From positions 11,767 to 75,766 of the forward strand of contig JUEF01000030.1 in the NCBI GenBank assembly GCA_000802045.1: a stretch of DNA of 64,000 nt. The letters are read 5' to 3'. Below are positions 4,441-38,823 of the stretch, in pieces. Within the stretch, counting starts at the first letter, position 1. Every line of letters begins with the position of its first letter. Below the pieces are notes generated by a model. That model was not told where the DNA came from. It did not search any database and saw nothing but the letters and a program-made list of their open reading frames with translations. The stretch comes from Peptococcaceae bacterium BICA1-8 (GTDB taxonomy: Bacteria > Bacillota > Peptococcia > Peptococcales > BICA1-8). The translations under genes and the position numbers were made by a program.

Positions 4441-5358
4441 TTAACGCTCTATTCCGAACAAATCACTTACCGATTTGTGCTTACGATGTAACAGCCAGGC
4501 TACGATCATGCCAAAAATAAATGTGGAAGAAGCTGTCTCTATCATGTGACTAAAGCGTACGCTTGCAATCGGTATAAGCGGATTTTCCAAAATGTGACCA
4601 ATGTTCTGCGGGATACTAAAGAGCAGACCTACAAGGATAGCCGTCCACCAGGCATTGATCTTTGAGCAACGAATAACCGGAAGAGCGCACAATGTCCAAA
4701 GCATGGCACGAAGAATCTGGAAGGAAAATAACCCAGGATCTGTACGCAAGGTATTGGATGTATGCGTCCAAAAAGGCAGAATTTCTCCCGGGCTTCCATA
4801 AAAAGCTCGTAACTCTGGGTTTTGCCAGGCAATGAAATATCCAGCACTCCAATACAGGACAAGATAGGCCATAACGATAACGACCAACTTCAATGCCCAC
4901 TGTTTCACGGGCATGACAAGTGCTGGATTAGACACTGAATCAGCCTTTCCACGACCTTTACCCAAAACCAACACCCCCAGTGGGACAAAGAAGAACGCGA
5001 TCGGAAAACCCATCACAAACAAACGTGGTAAAAGTTGTGCTCCAACCGTAATATTAGAAAGGAAATACCATGTCTCGATTTGCATAATGAATGTTACTGC
5101 ACCGTAATAGGCAAAAGATAATCCCAAGGCTAGTTTCCAGCCGCTCCAACGTGAGCTCAGAACCAGCCCCATCACCAACAGCGTATTGACAATACTAATA
5201 ATTAACATGCCAGTTTCCGCCGATACAAGCCCTGGCTCTGATTTGATATTCGGTATCAGCCCCAAAACAGCCTGCGCTCCACCGATGAAGAAGACGTTGA
5301 ACAACACGACAAGTACAATAAAACGTAAAATCCAACCTAGAACAGAAAAAGCCTTCAT
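4441..5358 (-). CDS. polytopic integral membrane protein, unknown family
   Basis: 305-aa ORF with about 8 hydrophobic segments. It is visibly more GC-rich than its neighbours. The nested ORFs on either strand are artefacts. Confidence 0.6.
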   Translation of the reverse strand: MKAFSVLGWILRFIVLVVLFNVFFIGGAQAVLGLIPNIKSEPGLVSAETGMLIISIVNTLLVMGLVLSSRWSGWKLALGLSFAYYGAVTFIMQIETWYFLSNITVGAQLLPRLFVMGFPIAFFFVPLGVLVLGKGRGKADSVSNPALVMPVKQWALKLVVIVMAYLVLYWSAGYFIAWQNPELRAFYGSPGEILPFWTHTSNTLRTDPGLFSFQILRAMLWTLCALPVIRCSKINAWWTAILVGLLFSIPQNIGHILENPLIPIASVRFSHMIETASSTFIFGMIVAWLLHRKHKSVSDLFGIER

Positions 5359-7262: not shown

Positions 7263-7952
7263 TCATAATCTTAAACACAAGGTTTTACTCTCACACTTTA
7301 TTTTTTTAACAAATTTCAAGTTAGATAATTCTATCGAACCTTCTAATTTGTTTTCACTAAATGGCCTAATTACAAAGCAGATTTCTCTAAACCCATTACT
7401 AGAATTAAATAAGTCTTTTAGCTTACAAAAAAAGATTGTTTCTGTAGGAGCTACAGGGATATTAATTTTATTTTCTAAATTTCCAAACTTCGCTTCAAGT
7501 ACAAAAGTTTTAATGTCTGTTGATTTACATTTAAAGCTCAAGTAGTATCCCTTATCATAATACTCTTCTAAATCATCGATACCTGTAATTACATAACTTA
7601 CCCAATTGTCTGAATTATCAGTGATATGATGATACTTTAATGCCAGTATGTTATTATTTGCGTATGCTTCAATTGTTCCTGGCAACTCATAACTAGTATA
7701 AATACCTCTTTTTTTGCCTAACCCATTTTCTATGTTAACTAACTTAGCTAATTCTAACGAAGTAAATTGAAAATCATCAAGTTCTCTTTCTTTTAAATTT
7801 TTAAATATTTCTCTTATACCACTTAAACTATTTAATATTTTTTTCTGAAATCTTTTAGAAAAAAAGAATACTACAGCCAGAATCATACTTAGAATCCCTA
7901 TCATATTAAGAAAAATACTACTTATATCACTAAATGATTTTAAAAAATGCAT
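7263..7952 (-). CDS. orphan membrane-anchored protein (N-terminal TM plus beta-rich domain)
   Basis: 229-aa AT-rich ORF with RBS AGGGGG upstream. No recognisable family. Confidence 0.5.
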   Translation of the reverse strand: MHFLKSFSDISSIFLNMIGILSMILAVVFFFSKRFQKKILNSLSGIREIFKNLKERELDDFQFTSLELAKLVNIENGLGKKRGIYTSYELPGTIEAYANNNILALKYHHITDNSDNWVSYVITGIDDLEEYYDKGYYLSFKCKSTDIKTFVLEAKFGNLENKINIPVAPTETIFFCKLKDLFNSSNGFREICFVIRPFSENKLEGSIELSNLKFVKKIKCESKTLCLRL

Positions 7953-7999: not shown

Positions 8000-8215
8000 A
8001 ATACCCTAGACGACTATTTCACATAACGATTGTGTTTTGCCGACGTCCTTGAGCCTTCAGGTGACCGCTCATGCCGGGGACCCTTTGGGTAAGCTAACAC
8101 GGGCACCGACTCGGTTGGTGAAAGGATGTGGCGCGCATGCCCCAAATCCCAGCTCAACGCGCCTTTACGGCAAAACTGGGTTATCGGATGGATGAGGCCG
8201 CAGCAAGAGCCGCAT
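8000..8215. other. GC-rich ORF-free structured segment (right-hand half of the split element)
   Basis: 9-bp long-range inverted repeat GTTTTGCCG (8034-8042) / CGGCAAAAC (8168-8176). Local hairpin GCCGC-ATGGAC-GCGGC. No credible reading frame. Confidence 0.4.
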
Positions 8216-8230
8216 GGACGCGGCGACCTT
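8216..8230. repeat. 15-bp direct repeat, copy 1 (GGACGCGGCGACCTT)
   Basis: 14/15 identical to 9030-9044. The two copies bracket the AT-rich two-ORF block. Confidence 0.8.
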
Positions 8231-8239
8231 TAATAGCAT

Positions 8240-8779
8240 TTATAAATCCAGTGTATTAAAAAATGCCTGTAGTTCCTCATTGCTTTTTTCATGCTTTATT
8301 CTATACTCATTAAATTCTTGTATAGGTAGGACAATCTTATATTTTTCTTGCTTAAAAATATTATTATTTCTTGTCGACACTATGAGCTTAAATTCAAAAT
8401 CGTTGATCCAATTAATTGTATTAAGATAATCCTCACGATTCGCACCTGATACTTCAAGATATATAATTAAAATCTTATTCACAGTTTTTTTTGGTTCCAA
8501 GACTATAGGGTATTTAACTTGCGTTTTGTGTTTCATAAATTCTAAAGGTGTAAAAATCTCTTCTTCAGACACAAAGTATTCCGTGAATTTGACATTAACC
8601 TTACTTAATAAAAATTCATCTTTAATTTTACTGAATTTTACTAATTCAACAATAATGTCTTCAATAATCCCAACATTATTACCAAAGTTATTAATAAACA
8701 AATTATAATTTACCATTAAATCAATATAGTTTTCTCCACAATCCTTAGCTTTAAAATGATATTGACGCAACGGAGACAC
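8240..8779 (-). CDS. orphan soluble protein
   Basis: 179-aa AT-rich ORF immediately downstream of the 66-aa membrane ORF. No recognisable motif. Confidence 0.45.
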   Translation of the reverse strand: MSPLRQYHFKAKDCGENYIDLMVNYNLFINNFGNNVGIIEDIIVELVKFSKIKDEFLLSKVNVKFTEYFVSEEEIFTPLEFMKHKTQVKYPIVLEPKKTVNKILIIYLEVSGANREDYLNTINWINDFEFKLIVSTRNNNIFKQEKYKIVLPIQEFNEYRIKHEKSNEELQAFFNTLDL

Positions 8780-9044: not shown

Positions 9045-9890
9045 GCCTCATCTTTCCGAGTCATGGTAGACGCATCGGTTACCCGACGCACCGGGCTCCT
9101 CGAGAATACTCCCTTCCGTAATCGGCTATCATTAATAGCCTCTTGGTATTTTTCGCAGTGAGGTTGGCACCATTTATCCAGCCCTGCATGTCCGGTAGGT
9201 GTTTCCTTTGCAAATTGCGTATTCCCGTTAATCCCTTCCCCATGTAGCCGGCTCTCTCGACCTCATAGTAATATGGATTAATCCGACTTCCTATAGGTCT
9301 TCGGTCAGCCTCTTTGTCGATTGCACATTCCTACCAATAATATTTATATAACTGGAACCTATAGGATCTCCCAAGTTCCGGATACTTCTCTCCATACATG
9401 CCACGTTCTAGGACCCCGACAGACCCTCCAAAATCTCACCAATAGCGATTTTTTTGTATTACTTCCGTGACATTAAACACGTCGTCATCTGCATTTTCCT
9501 CTGTTTCCAGAGTCCACGGTTAACGGGGCTCAATTGTGCTTCAGGGATTACGGTCTCCCTTATGGCCTATATGGTTCTCTAGGTAAAGAATCTAAGCGAT
9601 TCACACAAAAACTAAAAAAAGGTTTTTGGTTCTCTGCTTATGTGTACATTCACCTAGCAGTTACCAGTTTCGGCGCAACACTCGATATGGGTGGCTGGTT
9701 AGGCCTTGCCCAACAGGGACTTTCACCCTGCAAGAAGTACCAAACTTCGCTTGGCGTACTAACGTTCCCGGCATTCCCGACGCTCACCAACCTTAACGCC
9801 TTACCCAATAGGGTGAGTGTGGTCCGGCATGCTACTTGATTAAACTATACCGGACCCGTAAGTGGGAATGGACGTGTTAGCCGGGGTAGC
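9045..9890 (-). ncRNA. GC-rich ORF-free structured segment, family unassigned (degenerate group-II-intron-like or other large ncRNA, or decayed DNA)
   Basis: About 0.85 kb with no credible ORF in six frames and many local hairpins. On the minus strand, GAGCCCGGU-GCGUCGG-GUAA-CCGAUGC (9058-9098) resembles a domain-5-like GNRA hairpin with an AGC base. GGGUGAAAGUCCC lies near 9717-9729. Confidence 0.3.
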
Positions 9891-9895
9891 ATCTT

Positions 9896-10684
9896 TTAAA
9901 AAGGTATATCCTCTTTTCGTATCAAAAGTGAATCTACAAGATAAGTAATATAGGCAGCAACTAAATTTAAAATCAGTTCCGCCTCAGTTTCTGTAACTTT
10001 GGATCCTTCAGGAGATGAATGTGCAACGCCCTGACTTTCACCCCGAAAAGCATATATTTTAATAATACTTTCAGTAATAGTGGGGGGAATATTGATTAAA
10101 TCCGATTTTTGGAGTTCCCGAATTGCCTTGGTAAAATTTACTGACGCCTTCTTACCCGTAATGATTTCTATACAAGACTCTAATGCACACATAGATTCCT
10201 TTACACAATTAGTTAAATCCGGAATAGGCTTTTCCCCGAAAAACTTAAGTGCCTTATTATAATGTTGCCTCACTAAATATAATTCGCTGTTGGAGAGGAT
10301 TGCCCCCATTCTCTTAATACTCTTCTGTGTATGTAGTCTTCCTTCTCTCTCAAACTGTCCATTGTTAAATCTATAATCTAAATTTTCTTCACATAACAAA
10401 TTATTAATTTCATGTGTAAAATACTCTTTTACTTCTTCAATAGATACTAATATCTGCATTAATTGGTTATCACGGACATCAGTTAAAAGTATTGCATATA
10501 TTCGTTCACAAAGTGAATATATCTTGTACCATTCTACACTTTGAAGCAACCAATTAAACTCATCTAGGTAAGTTTGAAAATTGTTATAGCCTTTTTCTAC
10601 CCGTCCAAGTCGATATAACTCATTAAGAACAGTTCCCCATGCCGAGGAGTTATTGTTTTCTGCAATATAACGCCGATGTACCAT
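9896..10684 (-). CDS. AbiJ-N-terminal-domain / HEPN-like (Abi_C-like) protein, possibly 5'-truncated
   Basis: 262 aa. The C-terminal FRGESQGVAHSS resembles the R-x(n)-H HEPN/Abi_C motif. The frame is open upstream (LFEKPISDDFPNTVRIGLSFIIED) but has no start codon there. Confidence 0.45.
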   Translation of the reverse strand: MVHRRYIAENNNSSAWGTVLNELYRLGRVEKGYNNFQTYLDEFNWLLQSVEWYKIYSLCERIYAILLTDVRDNQLMQILVSIEEVKEYFTHEINNLLCEENLDYRFNNGQFEREGRLHTQKSIKRMGAILSNSELYLVRQHYNKALKFFGEKPIPDLTNCVKESMCALESCIEIITGKKASVNFTKAIRELQKSDLINIPPTITESIIKIYAFRGESQGVAHSSPEGSKVTETEAELILNLVAAYITYLVDSLLIRKEDIPF

Positions 10685-22494: not shown

Positions 22495-22525
22495 GACTAT
22501 AGACAATAGACTATAGACTATTGTC
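22495..22525. repeat. CTATAGA-type repeat / hairpin between convergent genes
   Basis: GACAATAGactatagaCTATTGTC stem-loop. It overlaps the last codons of ORF 22511..23539. Confidence 0.7.
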
Positions 22526-23539
22526 GGTAGCGGATATGATATCTTGAAATAGACCAGCTCCGCCTTCTTCTACCACGTTATAAACATTAACGGAAACCTT
22601 ACTGGCGATTTCCTGATAAAGCTTCTCCTTATTAACATAGGATGCTTCATAATCATCACTATTAAACCGGTATTTAGGATAGTAGGGATTAATGGTAAGA
22701 GCTATAATCTTGATATGTTTTCTTACTCCTATTTCTATTCCCTTTTGCTTAAGTTGAGCAAAAACATTATGTATTTTGTTTATATCACCAATAACCATAA
22801 GTTTTATGGGGTCAGGGAAAATTAATTTTTTCCCCGAAAGTTTCTCTGCTTTCTCTACCAAATACATTAAGCTCTTCTCACCTATTACCCCTTTAATATA
22901 AACAGTACTGACCTTCTCTAATTGGCTAAGTAATTCATCTACTTCATCACTGCTTAATATTGAATTTAAGCTGACAGTATTATGCTCAATATCTAAAACA
23001 GGATAACTAAAAACCTCTACCATACAATGGGTTTCAAAAGCGAGGTCACTTATTTTACTTTTCCGAGCAGCCCCAGTTGTCAGTATTAATCCCTCAACCT
23101 CAACCATAGGTGCAATCCTATTAAGAGCACCGTCAACTATAATCAAATTTAGATTATGTTGGCGTAGCTTATTTAATACCTGTCTTAGTTCACTGCTTTT
23201 ATTAGGTCCGGCAACGACCAGTCTACCCCCCTTAGTTACCTTGCCCAAGATAATCTTCCCTAATGGAGTAGCAAATTTCGTTACCTCCAAGACCTCTACT
23301 TCTGCAGTGCTAACCTTCAAGCATTTTTCAGCTACGGCCACCAAAACCCCGGGCCAAACTTCGATTTTTGGTTTAGGAAGACCAGTAACATTATCTATGT
23401 CTTCACCATCATAACCGATACTAGTCAGACCCAAGTTTAGCTTCTCATTTTTTTTAACCTCTGCCATTATGAAGGAGGTTGTTGTTGTTTTTCCTGTATT
23501 TTTAGCTGTCCCAGCTATTCCAATAATAATTGTCTGCAT
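22511..23539 (-). CDS. P-loop NTPase of unknown function
   Basis: N-terminal Walker A GIAGTAKNTGKTT. 342 aa. Start lies 3 nt after the stop of the upstream mutase-like gene. Confidence 0.5.
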   Translation of the reverse strand: MQTIIIGIAGTAKNTGKTTTTSFIMAEVKKNEKLNLGLTSIGYDGEDIDNVTGLPKPKIEVWPGVLVAVAEKCLKVSTAEVEVLEVTKFATPLGKIILGKVTKGGRLVVAGPNKSSELRQVLNKLRQHNLNLIIVDGALNRIAPMVEVEGLILTTGAARKSKISDLAFETHCMVEVFSYPVLDIEHNTVSLNSILSSDEVDELLSQLEKVSTVYIKGVIGEKSLMYLVEKAEKLSGKKLIFPDPIKLMVIGDINKIHNVFAQLKQKGIEIGVRKHIKIIALTINPYYPKYRFNSDDYEASYVNKEKLYQEIASKVSVNVYNVVEEGGAGLFQDIISATDNSL

Positions 23540-27072: not shown

Positions 27073-28461
27073 TTACATGAGGAATATTGCCATGACAGTA
27101 GCTCCCAACAATCCTAACATAACGGGGATAAAGTTTCTCCGTGCTAATTCCATCGGGTCAACACCACAAATAGCAGCAACTGGAATTAATCCCCAAGGTA
27201 CTACTGTTCCGCCACCTATCCAGACAGAAGACAATTGTCCTAAGGCTGCTAAGGTTCCTTTGTCAACAGCAATAGCACTGCCAAAGGTTTGGGCCAATGA
27301 GCCTACTAAAGGTAGCCCTGAGAATCCCGAACCATCCAAACCGGTAATTCCACCAATTATTACTTGAATAAAAGCTACCGGTATCCTACTTAAAGGAACA
27401 TTATTAGCTAACGCATAACCCAAATCGGTCAAAAGACCAGTTGCTTGTTCACCTAGGATAACTTTAGCTGTTCCCTCTGAACCCAAGAAGAAGAAACCTC
27501 CGATTACAATTACAGGAGCAAAGATTTTAATTCCGAACATAAAGCCATCCCGGATGTAATCAGTAATTTTCTCCAGAGAATCAGTGCCAAATTGGAGAAT
27601 AGCTGCCAAGCACATAATAGCTGCTGCCGTACCTCCAATTAAAGCAGTAGCATCTCCACCCCGTATTTCGTATAAATACATGAATAGTACATCCAAACCG
27701 AAGGCTACTGGAATCAAAATTGCAATAAAGTAAGACACCCAGGTAAATTTCTGATTAGCCTTGGCTTCCTGATCTTTGGCCATTTGTTTTTGTTCAACTT
27801 TTATTGCCTCCTGATTTTTATTTATGTCTTTTTTGAGCATGATAAATGCTGTCACACTAGCAATAATTGAACAAGTTAACCATAAAGGAATACTTGGTCC
27901 GATTACTCCTGTTGCATCGGCAAACCCTGCTGATTTAGCAGTAATAGCCGGAGCACCTTGAATAAAGTAATCTGATGATAAAGCAATACCATGACCAAAT
28001 ATATTCATAGAAATTGCTGCACCAATAACCGGAAGTCCTGCTCTAACAGCTACTGGAAGAACAATGGCACCAATTAATGCTACAGCTGGTGATGGCCAAA
28101 CAAACCAGGATACTAGAAGCATAGCAATACCTAAAACCCAAAAAGCTATATTTGCGTTAACCATTGCCCGTGAGGCTGGCTGCATTACAATATAATCAGC
28201 ACCGACATCAGCTAAAGCTTTAGACATAGCTACAACCAGGGATATAATGGCAATAATTCCCCAGAACTCATTACCGGCAGCAATTAAAGCATTATATACT
28301 ACCTGTAGCCCTCCGATAAGACTGCCTTTTGCTGATAATCCAATAACAAATAAGCCTATAAAACAAGGCAATACCGTATCCCTGCGCAAAATCATGGTAA
28401 CCAAAACTATTAATACCATGAAAACATATATCCAATGTAATGAGGTTAATTGTACTTCCAC
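27073..28461 (-). CDS. polytopic permease (ion-transporter superfamily-like; substrate unknown)
   Basis: 462 aa, more than 10 TM, with a central hydrophilic loop. Resembles DcuC/YfcC/NhaC-type carriers. Confidence 0.6.
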   Translation of the reverse strand: MEVQLTSLHWIYVFMVLIVLVTMILRRDTVLPCFIGLFVIGLSAKGSLIGGLQVVYNALIAAGNEFWGIIAIISLVVAMSKALADVGADYIVMQPASRAMVNANIAFWVLGIAMLLVSWFVWPSPAVALIGAIVLPVAVRAGLPVIGAAISMNIFGHGIALSSDYFIQGAPAITAKSAGFADATGVIGPSIPLWLTCSIIASVTAFIMLKKDINKNQEAIKVEQKQMAKDQEAKANQKFTWVSYFIAILIPVAFGLDVLFMYLYEIRGGDATALIGGTAAAIMCLAAILQFGTDSLEKITDYIRDGFMFGIKIFAPVIVIGGFFFLGSEGTAKVILGEQATGLLTDLGYALANNVPLSRIPVAFIQVIIGGITGLDGSGFSGLPLVGSLAQTFGSAIAVDKGTLAALGQLSSVWIGGGTVVPWGLIPVAAICGVDPMELARRNFIPVMLGLLGATVMAIFLM

Positions 28462-33522: not shown

Positions 33523-34365
33523 CTATTTCACTTTCTCATTACTTTCCTTGCCATAAGGTATTGGTATGTATTGTACCGATGGTCTCCGATTATTAGTCTG
33601 GGGATACAAGTCCATTAACTTGTATACTTCATAGGGCATATCTGTACTTACAAAAAGCTCTAATTCCCGCAACTCTTCAAATCTTATTGGATAATCATGG
33701 GTCCAGCGACCTTCGCTAAAAATTTTAGCAAGCTCACAAGCCCTTTCCTGGGAGAAATGCTCGGCCAGAATAAAGCACAAGGTATTCTCCACTTGTTTAA
33801 TCGCTTTTTTTGCTATATCAGCGAAAATTAGAGTTTCATCATCTATTTCATTGATATCCTTTTCCTTAACAACATTTAGTATAGAGACTGCAGGATATTG
33901 GCCTAGTTGTGGATCTACAGGACCTAAAACTGCGTTTTCATCCATTACTATTTTGTCGGCTGCCAAGGCAATCATTGTTCCGCCAGACATTGCATAATGA
34001 GGAACAAAAACTGTCACATCTGCTTTGTGTTTTTTTAAAGCATAGGCTATCTGTTCGGAAGCCAAAACTAATCCACCAGGGGTATGTAAAATAATATCTA
34101 TTGGCATATCAGCTGGAGTGAATCGAATTGCCCGCAGTATCTGCTCCGAATCCTCGATGTTTATATATTTTCGTAAGGCTAAGCCAAAAAAGCTCATTGA
34201 TTCCTGTCGGTGAATAAGGGTAATAACCCTCGAATTCCTCTTTTTCTCAAAATCCTGCATAATCTTAATTCTACTGGTTTCTATGCCTCTTTGCTTTATT
34301 AAAGGTAACAGCATAGATACCAAAAATAAAAGCAAAAAAAACTGCCAAAATCCATCGCCTTTCAC
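33523..34365 (-). CDS. SDH-family ClpP-fold serine protease
   Basis: N-terminal TM, then TPGGLVLASEQIA and YAMSGGTMIALAAD typical of the serine dehydrogenase proteinase family. The start codon is uncertain. Confidence 0.7.
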   Translation of the reverse strand: MKGDGFWQFFLLLFLVSMLLPLIKQRGIETSRIKIMQDFEKKRNSRVITLIHRQESMSFFGLALRKYINIEDSEQILRAIRFTPADMPIDIILHTPGGLVLASEQIAYALKKHKADVTVFVPHYAMSGGTMIALAADKIVMDENAVLGPVDPQLGQYPAVSILNVVKEKDINEIDDETLIFADIAKKAIKQVENTLCFILAEHFSQERACELAKIFSEGRWTHDYPIRFEELRELELFVSTDMPYEVYKLMDLYPQTNNRRPSVQYIPIPYGKESNEKVK

Positions 34366-34446: not shown

Positions 34447-36075
34447 TTATTGCTCATCATCCTTTTTTAAAATCATCTCACAAAATTGTTCTAAGATTAT
34501 AGGGTCATAATGGGTTACAGTATATTTAGCTAATTCCTCAACTGCTTGTTCCTTGGACATTGCTTCTTTATAAGGCCGATTTGTTGTAATAGCATCATAG
34601 CTATCAACAATCCTTAGTATTCTTGCACCTATAGGAATATCCTTACCTTTTAAACCTTTCGGATAACCTGTCCCATCATAATTTTCATGATGGTATAAAA
34701 TTATCTCCAAAGAATTCTGAAGAGTTTTTATAGGTCTGATAATATCTGCTCCCCATTGAGGATGTTGTTTAAACATTTCCCACTCAGACTGATTAAGTTT
34801 TTTTGGTTTATTCAAAACCTCTCTAGAAATTTCTATTTTACCGATATCATGTAAGAGTGAACCATAAATAAGATTTTTTGTTAGGAAATCATTGAATTTT
34901 GAACTTATAGAAAATTTTCTGCATAGTTCCATAGTTCTTTCCGAATGTCCATAAGTATAGCGGTCTTTAGCATTAATAACCATAGTTAGAGTTCTGATTG
35001 AATTTAAAAGTTCTTGTTCCTCATCCTTTAAAACAAGGCTCAATTCGTCAAAAACTGAATAATAGACTTCTACTTTATTCTTACTGACAAATTTAGCTTT
35101 ATATAAAGCTTCATCAGCTTTTTGAATAAGCTTTTCCTTAGTATCAGCCATTAAAGGCAACTGAGCTATTCCAATTGAAACAGTTAAGTTGCCCTTTGGC
35201 AGCACCTGCATGCCTATAAATTCAGTTTTTTCTATCTCTTCTCGAATCTTCTCAGCTAATATCCTAGCATCCCGGATCCCTGCCTCAGGCAATATTATTA
35301 CAAACTCTTCCCCACCATACCTAGCACAGTAGCCTTTTCCTTGAGTATTATTCTTCATGATATCAGCAACGGCTTTTAATACAATGTCACCCTTCTGATG
35401 ACCTAGGGAATCATTATACACCTTAAAATAATCTATATCTAATAAAAGCAAAGAAAGTGAAGACTTATTTCCTTTGGCTTCAGTTATTTTCTCATCTAGT
35501 ATGGTCTGAAAGCTCCTATGGTTTAATAAATCAGTCAATCCATCATGGGTTGCAAGTCTTTCTAATTCCTCTCTTATCTTTGCCTCTGTTTCCGTCATGT
35601 TGCCTAAAAGCCAGGCTAACAAAAATAAGACTCCACTAAGCATGATATCTGCATCAATATAGATAAAATTACTTAAAAAACCCATACCTAATAAAATAAG
35701 TGTTATTAAACCGACAAATATATACGAGTATATTTTTTTATATTTTAATGATGTGATAACTATTGGCATTAAATAAAGTATTTTAAAAATTTCTTGTTCT
35801 TCTTTCAATAAAAGAAAGGAAGCAATTAAAATAAAGAATATATTTATAAATGTGTCAAGCAATATGGTATGTTTATAGTCTACAAGTCGTATTAGTGGTA
35901 TCAGTGAAATAATAACTATAAAAACATAGCTAGAACCTACCGAGTAAAGAGTTGATGCTTCATTTTTAAAATCAAAAACTCTCATTACTAATATGGCTAA
36001 AAGTAAAAAAAAGAAAGTTTGTGTGACAAGAATATAAATCTCTTTATTTTTAAAATTTTTATCTATTTCTAACAT
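34447..36075 (-). CDS. polytopic membrane GGDEF plus HD-GYP protein (c-di-GMP synthesis/hydrolysis)
   Basis: About 6 N-terminal TM segments. GGDEF domain with RYGGEEF. HD-GYP domain with HSERT...LLHDIGK...HHENYDGTGYP. Start taken at MLEIDKNF. Confidence 0.85.
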   Translation of the reverse strand: MLEIDKNFKNKEIYILVTQTFFFLLLAILVMRVFDFKNEASTLYSVGSSYVFIVIISLIPLIRLVDYKHTILLDTFINIFFILIASFLLLKEEQEIFKILYLMPIVITSLKYKKIYSYIFVGLITLILLGMGFLSNFIYIDADIMLSGVLFLLAWLLGNMTETEAKIREELERLATHDGLTDLLNHRSFQTILDEKITEAKGNKSSLSLLLLDIDYFKVYNDSLGHQKGDIVLKAVADIMKNNTQGKGYCARYGGEEFVIILPEAGIRDARILAEKIREEIEKTEFIGMQVLPKGNLTVSIGIAQLPLMADTKEKLIQKADEALYKAKFVSKNKVEVYYSVFDELSLVLKDEEQELLNSIRTLTMVINAKDRYTYGHSERTMELCRKFSISSKFNDFLTKNLIYGSLLHDIGKIEISREVLNKPKKLNQSEWEMFKQHPQWGADIIRPIKTLQNSLEIILYHHENYDGTGYPKGLKGKDIPIGARILRIVDSYDAITTNRPYKEAMSKEQAVEELAKYTVTHYDPIILEQFCEMILKKDDEQ

Positions 36076-36095
36076 AGTTATAAACCTCACTGAAT

Positions 36096-36124
36096 TTAAA
36101 TTGAGGTGGAAAACCACCTCAATT
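36096..36124 (-). other. strong stem-loop between agrD and the GGDEF/HD-GYP gene
   Basis: AAATTGAGGTGGttttCCACCTCAATTT, a 12-bp perfect stem with no U-run after it. Confidence 0.6.
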
Positions 36125-36128
36125 TAAA

Positions 36129-36251
36129 CTATTTTTGTAAAGACTTAGGAGCTTTAGGTTGATATGTCCACCAACCACAGGCAAAAACTGAGCTGACACT
36201 GGCCAAAAGCATTAAAGTTGTAGCAAGTGCTGTAAAAATCGCCTTTTTCAT
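36129..36251 (-). CDS. agrD: AgrD-type autoinducing-peptide precursor (40 aa, absent from the ORF track)
   Basis: MKKAIFTALATTLMLLASVSSVFACGWWTYQPKAPKSLQK. RBS GGGAGGTG. The CGWWT-YQP..PKSL tail parallels clostridial AgrD (e.g. CLWFT-HQPEEPKSL). Lies 5 nt after agrB. Confidence 0.75.
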   Translation of the reverse strand: MKKAIFTALATTLMLLASVSSVFACGWWTYQPKAPKSLQK

Positions 36252-36256
36252 TTAAA

Positions 36257-36829
36257 TCACCTCCCTTTATTAAAAATTGGTAGTAAAGTTAGTGACTGAT
36301 ATAAAATGCCTAACATTGCACTAATATTTATCAGCAAATTGTCATTTAAAATTGTAAATATTAAAATAAAAATAATAAACAGAACAGAGGAAAGTCTCAG
36401 CTTATTCCGTAAGGTTTGGGAATGAATAGGTTTGGCTTCGGAGTCAACGGGTGCAAATAAAAATACAATAATCAAACATAGCAAAATGAAAATCATATTA
36501 ATCCAGTTAGTAGATCCAACCTGCAATAAATAATTAGCTAGGACTCCAATTAAACTGTAGATAATTGCACCCAAACCTAGGCATTTTAAGGGTGTATCAA
36601 AGTGAGCGCCTCCGGAAACTCTACGTAAAACACCGCCTGATATAGCTGCTATGGCTGCAGGCAAAAGAGCGTTAAAGACAAAACCTAATAATAAAATAGC
36701 CAGAAAACCAACTACACCAAGCAAGAACATCTCAATGGCATAAGAAACAATTTCATTTTTTTCTTCATCATAGTTTAAATCCTTAGTAATAAAACCCGCT
36801 AAGGATTTACTAAAATTAGAAAGCATCAC
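36257..36829 (-). CDS. agrB: AgrB family AIP-processing membrane peptidase
   Basis: 190 aa, 4-6 TM, conserved RR.SGG.H segment (LRRVSGGAHF). Confidence 0.85.
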   Translation of the reverse strand: MMLSNFSKSLAGFITKDLNYDEEKNEIVSYAIEMFLLGVVGFLAILLLGFVFNALLPAAIAAISGGVLRRVSGGAHFDTPLKCLGLGAIIYSLIGVLANYLLQVGSTNWINMIFILLCLIIVFLFAPVDSEAKPIHSQTLRNKLRLSSVLFIIFILIFTILNDNLLINISAMLGILYQSLTLLPIFNKGR

Positions 36830-37283
36830 TAGACTCCTTTATATCTAATCTCTTTTTTTTAATAAATAAGGCTACAAAAAAGATAATTAATACATGGGGT
36901 AAAGTAATTAAAATTCTTATAAAATCATTAGTTAATAATTCCTCACGAGAAATCGCAAATAGATTCATAATGGTAGGAACTATTAAGGACTCTGAAACAA
37001 TTAAAACTAAAAAACTCAATAAGCTAGATAAAATTGCACTACTTAAATCTACTTTTTTAATGAAACTTAGATAAGCAAATAAAAGACCAATTAATACTAC
37101 GGTATGCACGCCAAAAGTAATAGGTAGTAACCTAACCATAAAGGCAGTTATTGCTAGAATAATTCCTACAAAAATTACCTCTCGCCATTTAAAAGGTTGT
37201 CTTGCAATTGAAAGAGCTAAAATAACAACCGCAATTTGTTCAGGAATTCCTTGTAATAATACTACAGAAAAAGAAATATTCAT
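36816..37283 (-). CDS. 5-TM membrane protein of unknown function, overlapping agrB by 14 nt
   Basis: 155 aa, RBS GGAGGA, no soluble domain. Confidence 0.5.
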   Translation of the reverse strand: MNISFSVVLLQGIPEQIAVVILALSIARQPFKWREVIFVGIILAITAFMVRLLPITFGVHTVVLIGLLFAYLSFIKKVDLSSAILSSLLSFLVLIVSESLIVPTIMNLFAISREELLTNDFIRILITLPHVLIIFFVALFIKKKRLDIKESSDAF

Positions 37284-37483
37284 TCTGCATCCTCCATTTC
37301 AACTAATTTCCACAAATAATAATTTTCCCCTTTTTAAAAAAACAAATATTTCTATATTTTTTTCTCATATATTTAGAAAATCTACCTTTCTGCTGTTATA
37401 ATTTTTCACAATATTATTTATTCGCCAAACATTTACAAATTCCTACTAATTTTATCCACTTTGTATAAAATTTTTATGCATAG

Positions 37484-37510
37484 AAAAAACCGGGCCAACG
37501 AACGCCCGGT
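37484..37510 (-). terminator. rho-independent terminator after flxA
   Basis: Minus strand reads ACCGGGCguucguugGCCCGGU followed by UUUUUU. Confidence 0.75.
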
Positions 37511-37556
37511 TTCCCCCCCTCCTCATACGGTTTTACAATATCATTGTTATAACGAC

Positions 37557-38448: not shown

Positions 38449-38823
38449 GTCATTCTGAGCGTAGCGAAGAATCTTAATCCATAAGATTCTCTGATAAATC
38501 CTTCCACCCTGGGTTTGCGTTTTCTATCAAATCATTTTTTTTAGACCTAATCCAGCCTTTAATCTGTTTCTCTCTGGAAATTGCACTTCTTACATCTGTC
38601 GTACTTTCAAAATAAACTAATTTATCAACATTATATTTCTTTGTAAACCCTTTAACCATCTTGTTTTTATGTTCATATAAGCGACGTTCGAGATCATTAG
38701 TAACACCTGTATATAGAACATTGTTTGACCAGTTTGTCAGTATATAAACATAATACATAAAGTTCACCTACTGATAAGATTCTTCACTTCGTTCCCGTCA
38801 TTCTGAGCGTAGCGAAGAATCTT
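38449..38823 (-). mobile_element. GIY-YIG mini-cassette bounded by perfect 27-bp direct repeats
   Basis: GTCATTCTGAGCGTAGCGAAGAATCTT at 38449-38475 and 38797-38823. It encloses only the GIY-YIG ORF. Confidence 0.65.
38474..38758 (-). CDS. GIY-YIG nuclease superfamily protein (UPF0213/YhbQ-like)
   Basis: MYYVYILTNWSNNVLYTGVTNDLERRLYEHK... carries the GIY-YIG core motifs. RBS AGGTGA 5 nt upstream of this ATG. Confidence 0.85.
   Translation of the reverse strand: MYYVYILTNWSNNVLYTGVTNDLERRLYEHKNKMVKGFTKKYNVDKLVYFESTTDVRSAISREKQIKGWIRSKKNDLIENANPGWKDLSENLMD

Follow-up and report, generated by a model that had tools for sequence, protein, structure and literature searches.

A stretch of 64,000 nucleotides (nt) from contig JUEF01000030.1 of Peptococcaceae bacterium BICA1-8 (hereafter the window, in whose positions all coordinates are given) holds an agr locus with an unusual receptor half. 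Agr is the model for Gram-positive peptide quorum sensing, and to our knowledge all characterised Agr receptors are histidine kinases. We read the locus, with a probability of about 60%, as an agr-type quorum-sensing module in which the AgrC/AgrA pair would be replaced by a membrane-bound enzyme of cyclic di-GMP (c-di-GMP) turnover acting as the receptor; with equal confidence, it would represent a new variant of Agr quorum sensing, in which this enzyme is likely the receptor and an uncharacterised fourth component is added. The four genes run head to tail on the minus strand, on which all features of the locus lie, across 34447-37283 in the order 5TM (a small protein with five transmembrane (TM) helices), agrB, agrD and receptor candidate, with a hairpin between the last two. 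Judged by sequence comparison, the strongest evidence for the receptor role is a hypervariable block that ends inside the gene of the enzyme: because the membrane part of the protein varies together with the peptide, the enzyme is probably the peptide's receptor.

The agr genes and the c-di-GMP enzyme

The biosynthetic half of the locus was readily assigned. The agrB gene (36257-36829), coding for the membrane peptidase/cyclase of AgrD processing, matches PF04647 with E=7e-39 and 133 bits (cut-off 23) and contains a GGAH...C motif, in which the His and Cys are 7 residues apart as read from the sequence. It overlaps the 5TM gene by 14 nt and is separated by 5 nt from agrD (36129-36251). The close packing of four same-strand genes given in a preliminary description of this locus was confirmed, and all other details of that description hold as well, save for the length of the hairpin stem. 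The 40-aa pheromone precursor encoded by agrD (TIGR04223, E=1.5e-10, 41 bits, cut-off 19) reads MKKAIFTALATTLMLLASVSSVFA-CGWWT-YQPKAPKSLQK and shows the short length, hydrophobic leader, Cys/Ser ring residue and charged C-terminal tail of its kind. The predicted pheromone core, CGWWT (AgrD residues 25-29; 36165-36179), was placed by position and by analogy with the 5-residue ring of Clostridium perfringens (PMC7492741). Across about 40 loci, the AgrD family follows the pattern SVFAC-X4-YQPKxPKSLQK, where X4 is the sole hypervariable stretch and differs in almost every locus. By these profile matches and motifs, AgrB and AgrD show nothing out of the ordinary for the Agr family. A further arrangement was seen in locus L016, where an additional pair of 5TM and AgrD (core CGGWA) without an AgrB of its own (8001-8634), the 5TM gene preceding only an agrD, lies upstream of a full 5TM-5TM-AgrB-AgrD(CAWFG)-receptor set, giving two pheromone precursors in one locus.

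The receptor candidate (34447-36075; Pfam GGDEF E=2e-42, HD_5 E=4e-41) is a 542-aa protein with a 6TM-GGDEF-HD-GYP layout. The listed open reading frame (ORF) is 556 aa long and starts at a GTG inside the hairpin; the preferred start is the ATG at 36075, which has a GAGG before it and agrees with the N-termini of homologues. A six-helix membrane sensor domain (residues 1-160; 35596-36075), delimited from hydropathy, predicted helices and alignments and hypervariable in TM1-5 (35680-36075), is followed by a GGDEF domain (diguanylate cyclase; 35077-35553; PF00990, E=2e-42) and an HD-GYP domain (c-di-GMP phosphodiesterase; 34501-34992; PF13487 (HD_5), E=4e-41). Hydropathy, Pfam and motifs thus agree with the protein as first described, with about six TM helices and the signatures RYGGEEF and HHENYDGTGYP. 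The GGDEF active site RYGGEEF is intact, as is the DxD...ND metal/substrate site in LDIDYFKVYND, and both HD-GYP motifs, LLHDIGK and HHENYDGTGYP, are complete. The RxxD inhibitory site, common but optional in such domains, is replaced by QGKG, and none of the aligned homologues has it. Among 17 homologues, 15 retain GG(D/E)EF and all 17 retain HD plus HHExxDGxGYP. Like those of AgrB and AgrD, the GGDEF and HD-GYP matches exceed their curated cut-offs by a wide margin, and the candidate is probably a bifunctional c-di-GMP enzyme. Two relatives, L009 (9318-10842) and L023 (9209-10817), have the receptor gene split into several ORFs, as pseudogenes or through assembly or frameshift errors.

No histidine kinase, receiver or LytTR protein was found among the 37 window ORFs scanned against Pfam, nor by phmmer among the 182 ORFs of at least 50 aa in the 64 kb, for which an AgrC-type kinase, a LytTR regulator and three PAS kinases served as queries; the lack of an AgrC-type kinase and of an AgrA/LytTR regulator noted earlier for the window therefore stands. 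Where a canonical agrBDCA locus would continue with a HATPase_c_5 AgrC and a LytTR AgrA, agrD is followed here by GGDEF and HD_5. Searches with the six-helix domain itself were less productive. Protein database searches with the single sequence or the alignment returned at most one 176-aa fragment, probably owing to saturation of the prefilter by hydrophobic words. A profile built without the distant members nevertheless detects the receptors of Neomoorella, Desulforudis and Romboutsia timonensis (E=1e-7 to 1e-15). Below the Pfam thresholds, there is similarity to DUF4118 in 6 of 19 members (best E=1e-4), to 6TM_PilS in 2 of 19 (3.7e-5) and to MASE1 in 2 of 19; AgrC is represented in the PDB by the kinase modules 6e52 and 4bxi, with no full-length structure.

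The co-variation was seen in comparison with L013, the metagenome-assembled genome (MAG) 'Clostridiaceae bacterium BRH_c20a', whose gene order is that of the window. Flanking proteins are 93-99% identical between the two, whereas inside the block identity falls to 40% for 5TM, 46% for AgrB, 75% for AgrD (core CGWWT in the window, CAFWG in L013) and 34% for the receptor TM region; the catalytic part of the same receptor (GGDEF+HD-GYP) is 92% identical. Between about 37450 and about 35680, nucleotide identity in a 90-nt sliding comparison was 48-68%, against about 80-97% to either side, which defines a hypervariable specificity block (35680-37450) comprising promoter, 5TM, agrB, agrD, hairpin and receptor TM1-5. 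At its left edge, near 37450, identity drops from 81-97% to 56-59%. The right boundary is sharp and falls inside the receptor gene, at about 35680 (about residue 132), which is the end of TM5, while TM6 and the linker (IDADIMLSGVLFLLAWLLGNMTETEAKIREELERLA) are 100% identical in the window and L013. A second pair from an unrelated lineage, Desulforudis sp. Tu-874 and a Bacillota MAG (L028/L030), repeats this distribution: the flanks are 85-96% identical, 5TM 50%, AgrB 57% and the receptor 48% in its TM domain versus 91% in its catalytic part, with the boundary again within the TM domain. The architecture of agr specificity groups (pherotypes) was therefore found in both pairs. Moreover, the more distant L001 (catalytic part 73% identical) has the same AgrD core as the window, CGWWT, and its TM region is 49% identical to that of the window, above the 34% of L013, the gain falling in TM1, the first outer loop (ECL1), TM2, TM3 and TM5.

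In Staphylococcus aureus, synthase, peptide and sensor half together make up the variable block of agr, which ends in the middle of agrC. The window locus resembles agrBDCA in its AgrB/AgrD pair, in the polytopic receptor gene next to agrD and in a hypervariable block that ends inside the receptor gene, seen here in two pairs. It differs in an output made of GGDEF and HD-GYP domains instead of an HPK10 kinase, in the lack of AgrA/LytTR in the window, in the 5TM gene that heads the operon and in a peptide without exocyclic tail. The receptor half of the locus is non-canonical, since AgrC and AgrA are both missing; its genetic architecture is still agr-like.

Conservation of the arrangement, the 5TM family and the hairpin

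The linkage was followed in two directions. A search with 5TM, taking one genome per species, gave 30 loci; the reverse search, a metagenome scan with the receptor TM domain, gave 13 loci, of which 12 had enough flank to be evaluable. In the first set, 5TM adjoins agrB in 29 of 30 loci, agrD follows in most of them, and the gene after agrD codes for a TM-GGDEF-HD-GYP protein of about 540-570 aa in 18 of 30 (one of these, L005, was counted from an open frame at a contig end). In the second set, 5TM/agrBD genes lie beside the receptor in 12 of 12 evaluable loci, the order being that of the window in 8 and 5TM standing directly upstream of the receptor in the other 4, where agrBD is divergent as far as the contig extends; in this reverse metagenome search, no case of the TM domain away from agr genes was found. 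Judged by their flanking genes, the receptor loci represent at least 12 unrelated contexts; they come from Peptococcaceae, Candidatus Formimonas, Candidatus Dichloromethanomonas, Desulforudis, Neomoorella and Romboutsia. Chance can hardly account for an arrangement met again in dozens of genomes and in such varied surroundings: it is real, conserved and non-random. The preliminary description had proposed such a survey of agrBD neighbours and had named non-conserved adjacency as the outcome that would speak against the link; the adjacency is conserved, in 18 of 30 and 12 of 12 loci. Among the metagenomic loci, L044, L045 and L047 have agrB-agrD divergent from an operon of 5TM and receptor, and their receptors are longer (762-766 aa), with about 230 additional C-terminal residues of unrecognised type after the HD-GYP domain.

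Other proteins can occupy the position after agrD. In 9 of the 30 loci, all from Desulfosporosinus/Desulfitobacterium (L010, L011, L017, L019-L022, L024, L027), it is taken by a PAS-HisKA-HATPase membrane kinase of about 604 aa with an extracellular domain; agrBD is intact in 8 of these 9, while L027 lacks agrBD and keeps a truncated 5TM and the kinase. In the kinase pair L010/L021, the extracellular domain is the most divergent part, with 76% identity vs 95-97%. These kinases have 2 TM helices, a variable extracellular domain of about 170 aa and no adjoining response regulator. Among the remaining loci, L031 combines an AgrC-type kinase core with a LytTR regulator, L018 has no receptor adjacent and one is cut by the contig end. 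Since PAS kinases occupy the slot after agrD in other loci, and since the six-helix domain is fused to PAS histidine kinases as well (L003 of Formimonas, L014 and L037), this slot is, by comparison of loci, a receptor slot. On the same ground, the occurrence of the six-helix domain on both GGDEF/HD-GYP proteins and PAS kinases makes it a portable sensor module with interchangeable outputs.

The PAS-HisKA-HATPase kinases that share this sensor domain are second receptors in their loci (L014, 7287-9956; L037, 6253-8856; L003, 4083-5681, minus strand), and in L014 and L037 the kinase has its own 5TM gene before it. In such two-receptor loci, a single peptide may act on c-di-GMP and on a phosphorelay alike. 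The TM domain of the PAS kinase is closest to that of the GGDEF receptor of its own locus in L014 (50%) but not in Formimonas (34%), and this similarity was not used as evidence.

The 5TM gene (36816-37283) codes for 155 aa with five membrane helices, and its AlphaFold (AF2) model consists of five long helices with a predicted local distance difference test score (pLDDT) of 93. No match to 5TM was found in Pfam and NCBIfam scans, nor to any of 39 family members in Pfam even at E<=10, and a fold search of the PDB with the model found none. The family is nonetheless large: there are 44 close homologues and 1033 cluster representatives in a profile search, nearly all of them stand-alone proteins of 140-180 aa. 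Residues Q11, G12, P14, E15, R51, P54 and E98 are invariant, H60 and P129 nearly so, and from helix positions and charge distribution the conserved polar residues would lie near the outer membrane face. In every case 5TM is the first gene of its operon, mostly coupled to agrB; it stands directly before a receptor gene in L044-47, L014/37/38, L027 and L031, and one to three tandem copies occur per locus. On this evidence from sequence neighbourhoods, 5TM is a large unannotated membrane-protein family tied to Agr loci.

A role of 5TM in AgrD maturation or export, or as accessory receptor subunit, may be envisaged, and both fit. In S. aureus, the CPBP-type membrane protease MroQ acts in the maturation of the autoinducing peptide (AIP), working with AgrB on AgrD in a manner that depends on the agr type. 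Like MroQ, 5TM is small and polytopic, which makes a MroQ-type role plausible. A sequence or fold relationship between the two was not detected (no Pfam and no PDB fold match for 5TM), and the conserved motifs differ, with QGIPEQ, RLLPITFGVH and a lone Glu in 5TM against EExxxR, FxxxH and HxxxN in CPBP proteins. Membership in the CPBP/MroQ-type proteases was rejected, as none of the 39 members matches Rce1/Abi (PF02517) at E<=10. A common origin of 5TM with the receptor TM domain (hhalign probability 2%) or with AgrB (0.5%) was rejected likewise. Besides, in L031 (7977-10878) 5TM overlaps a 282-aa AgrC-type kinase with just two TM helices (SPOB_a + HATPase_c_5), followed by AgrB, a Ser-type AgrD (MSVLTW) and a LytTR regulator; this layout hints that 5TM can partner a sensor-poor kinase.

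The hairpin is a perfect inverted repeat of 15 bp (36095-36128), longer than the 12 bp first given for it, and lies directly 3' of the agrD stop codon. Hairpins of differing sequence stand at the same place in 27 of 27 loci examined, and compared with shuffled sequences their stability has a median z of -4.6, with z < -3 in 19 of the 27. Several of these hairpins have a U-tract; that of the window has none. The receptor start codon follows the hairpin after about 20 nt, which leaves no room for a separate promoter, and read-through from agrBD into the receptor gene is what this spacing suggests. For the same reason, the simplest reading of the hairpin, by analogy with precursor-peptide operons, is that it is probably a leaky terminator or a stabiliser setting the ratio of precursor to receptor. 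Upstream, the intergenic region at 37284-37450 (minus strand), which forms the left edge of the block, is where the operon promoter lies unmapped: a promoter scan upstream of 5TM gave consensus-level matches only. A terminator-like hairpin of the upstream gene is found at about 37485-37520, and a riboswitch or other known RNA was sought in the locus and none was found.

Proposed mechanism and its alternatives

In the proposed mechanism, AgrB would cut off the C-terminal tail of AgrD and close the five-residue ring CGWWT, as its family membership suggests. After removal of the leader, the tail-less thiolactone would probably rearrange to an all-amide cyclopeptide, a rearrangement shown for other clostridial AIPs (PMC8251862). 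In the 6TM-GGDEF-HD-GYP protein, TM1-5 together with the outer loops would recognise the secreted peptide, while TM6 and the linker helix, both invariant, would relay the signal to the GGDEF and HD-GYP domains. Synthesis of c-di-GMP would then gain or lose against its hydrolysis, so that cell density would be read directly as the level of c-di-GMP, without a phosphorelay or a dedicated transcription factor. The hairpin would let the short 5TM-agrB-agrD message exceed read-through into the receptor gene, and 5TM would be a fourth obligatory component, either as maturation/export factor of AgrD or as accessory subunit of the receptor.

Routes from a quorum signal to c-di-GMP turnover exist elsewhere. 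RpfR, the receptor of the Burkholderia diffusible signal factor (BDSF), is a PAS-GGDEF-EAL protein that is both receptor and enzyme, and in Xanthomonas the RpfC/RpfG system conveys the diffusible signal factor (DSF) to an HD-GYP protein. The window locus would resemble both in this connection. However, these systems use fatty-acid signals and a cytoplasmic PAS domain or a phosphorelay, whereas a ribosomal cyclic peptide and a membrane domain of a Gram-positive bacterium are proposed here.

Within the clostridia, C. perfringens has an operon CPE1563-CPE1562-agrB-agrD, with two small hypothetical genes before agrB-agrD (PMC2706048), and many relatives of the window locus resemble it by gene position in having two 5TM genes before agrB. 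In its peptide, a ring of 5 residues precedes an xQPxxPKSL tail (PMC7492741); the ring size, a similar tail and the lack of agrCA beside agrBD are shared with the window, while the gene of a c-di-GMP enzyme directly after agrD is a difference from C. perfringens, where VirS is unlinked. For agr1 of Clostridioides difficile (agrB1D1), the receptor of AgrD1 is unknown and 'another unidentified transmembrane sensor' was posited by the authors (PMC10602386). This orphan agrBD has same-family counterparts in Romboutsia (L033, L034) with the order 5TM-agrB-agrD-TM-GGDEF-HD-GYP; in the literature searched, no description of a GGDEF/HD-GYP neighbour of C. difficile agrB1D1 was found. The link from Agr to c-di-GMP described in C. 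difficile is transcriptional, via AgrA (PMC3754575).

The suggestion of the preliminary description that either the membrane domain of the enzyme or 5TM senses the peptide finds support in the two-way linkage and the co-variation. Several points nevertheless weigh against the enzyme as receptor. That the TM domain binds the peptide is inferred from linkage and co-variation, and a single-sequence structure model of the receptor reached a pLDDT of 38 and was unusable. No Pfam model ties the TM domain to AgrC/VirS sensors, and its similarity to DUF4118, 6TM_PilS and MASE1 is weak. In L006, L007, L008 and L012 the AIP cores differ, yet divergence is no greater in the TM domain (69-76% identity) than in the catalytic part (70-79%). 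Recombination at the TM6/linker sequence, which is very conserved, could in part explain why the boundary lies inside the receptor gene. Finally, 5TM might be the true binding subunit, given its place in the variable block and, in some loci, immediately upstream of a receptor gene.

This last possibility, in which 5TM would be the actual peptide-binding subunit and the GGDEF/HD-GYP protein (or a PAS kinase) its signalling partner through membrane-helix contacts, seems to us unlikely, though it deserves serious attention. It agrees with the 40% identity of 5TM inside the block as against 93-99% in the flanks, with the position of 5TM directly before the receptor when agrBD is divergent (L044/45/47), and with its place before the second PAS kinase (L014/L037/L038), before a kinase (L027) and before the 2-TM AgrC-type kinase core of L031; the invariant polar residues, predicted near the outer membrane face from a topology inferred from charge distribution, would suit it too. 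However, 5TM overlaps or abuts agrB in most loci, whatever the receptor type, so that a biosynthetic role fits equally well, and its copy number (1-3) is independent of the number of receptors. The strict invariance of its Q/E/R/H/E residues would suit catalysis or transport better than the binding of hypervariable ligands, and the hypervariability of receptor TM1-5 is unexpected if the receptor were a mere partner of 5TM.

The true AIP receptor could also be an unlinked kinase of the AgrC/VirS type, with the GGDEF/HD-GYP protein sensing something else and placed there for co-regulation, or being a downstream target. Such a use of a distant kinase by a clostridial orphan agrBD is established for VirS in C. 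perfringens (PMC7492741), the portion of the genome visible and scanned here is 64 kb, and L018 has 5TM-agrBD genes with no adjacent receptor. We hold this explanation to be quite improbable, given that the linkage runs both ways in at least 12 contexts, that in two lineages the sensor half co-varies with the peptide and the catalytic half does not, that the TM domain was not found apart from agr genes in the reverse search, and that there is no space for an independent receptor promoter. The remaining alternative takes the membrane domain as a sensor in cis of AgrD precursor flux or of the AgrB/5TM machinery, coupling c-di-GMP to pheromone production, much as PilS senses pilin within the membrane. 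Some members show weak similarity to 6TM_PilS (E=3.7e-5) and DUF4118, and an intramembrane partner would be expected to co-vary with AgrB, 5TM and AgrD just as much; yet these similarities are below curated cut-offs and confined to 2-6 of 19 members, and AgrD varies in its secreted core rather than in its membrane-embedded leader, which leaves this alternative very improbable. The c-di-GMP enzyme as peptide receptor is the reading that we prefer.

Surroundings of the locus and biological meaning

Directly downstream of the receptor gene lies a gene for an SDH-family ClpP-like serine protease (33523-34365, minus strand; PF01972, E=4e-122). It is present in the window, L001 and L016 and missing at that spot in L013; because it is absent from this near-identical locus, the protease was rejected as a member of the system and is regarded as an indel outside the cassette. 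On the other side, a 97-aa GIY-YIG ORF (38474-38767, minus strand; PF01541, E=3.5e-18) lies within a stretch of about 490 nt whose equivalent in L013 measures about 240 nt, between a hydrogenase/heterodisulfide-reductase-like cluster and an NAD-binding gene, and is possibly a small mobile insertion. Farther away, the window contains a D1-D4 fragment of a group II intron (9404-9723, minus strand; Rfam RF02005, 83 bits) near an AbiJ_NTD4-like ORF (9896-10684). Four minus-strand ORFs had no Pfam match at E<=0.001: 27073-28461 (462 aa), 22511-23539 (342 aa), 4441-5358 (305 aa) and 7263-7952 (229 aa).

A peptide-pheromone receptor that is itself a c-di-GMP enzyme, through a link of AgrD/AgrB with GGDEF/HD-GYP, was not found described in a literature coverage that is incomplete and therefore no proof of novelty. 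Beyond the window, we give even odds to the broader proposal that in many anaerobic Firmicutes, from Peptococcaceae to Romboutsia, the pheromone receptor is a c-di-GMP synthase/phosphodiesterase and 5TM an unrecognised core component of Agr. The window and L013 differ almost only in the cassette, and would offer natural pairs of peptide and sensor for mapping the recognition of a five-residue ring. Many clostridial agrBD loci are 'orphans'. If the proposal is true, at least some of these would be explained, and it would show where to seek the missing receptors of others, such as agr1 of C. difficile. The 5TM family, with more than 1000 sequence clusters, would likewise be a previously unrecognised core component of Agr. 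Altogether, Agr would in these bacteria set the level of a second messenger directly, with no kinase, response regulator or transcription step, which would connect cell density, directly and independently of transcription, with the switch between motility, biofilm formation and sporulation.

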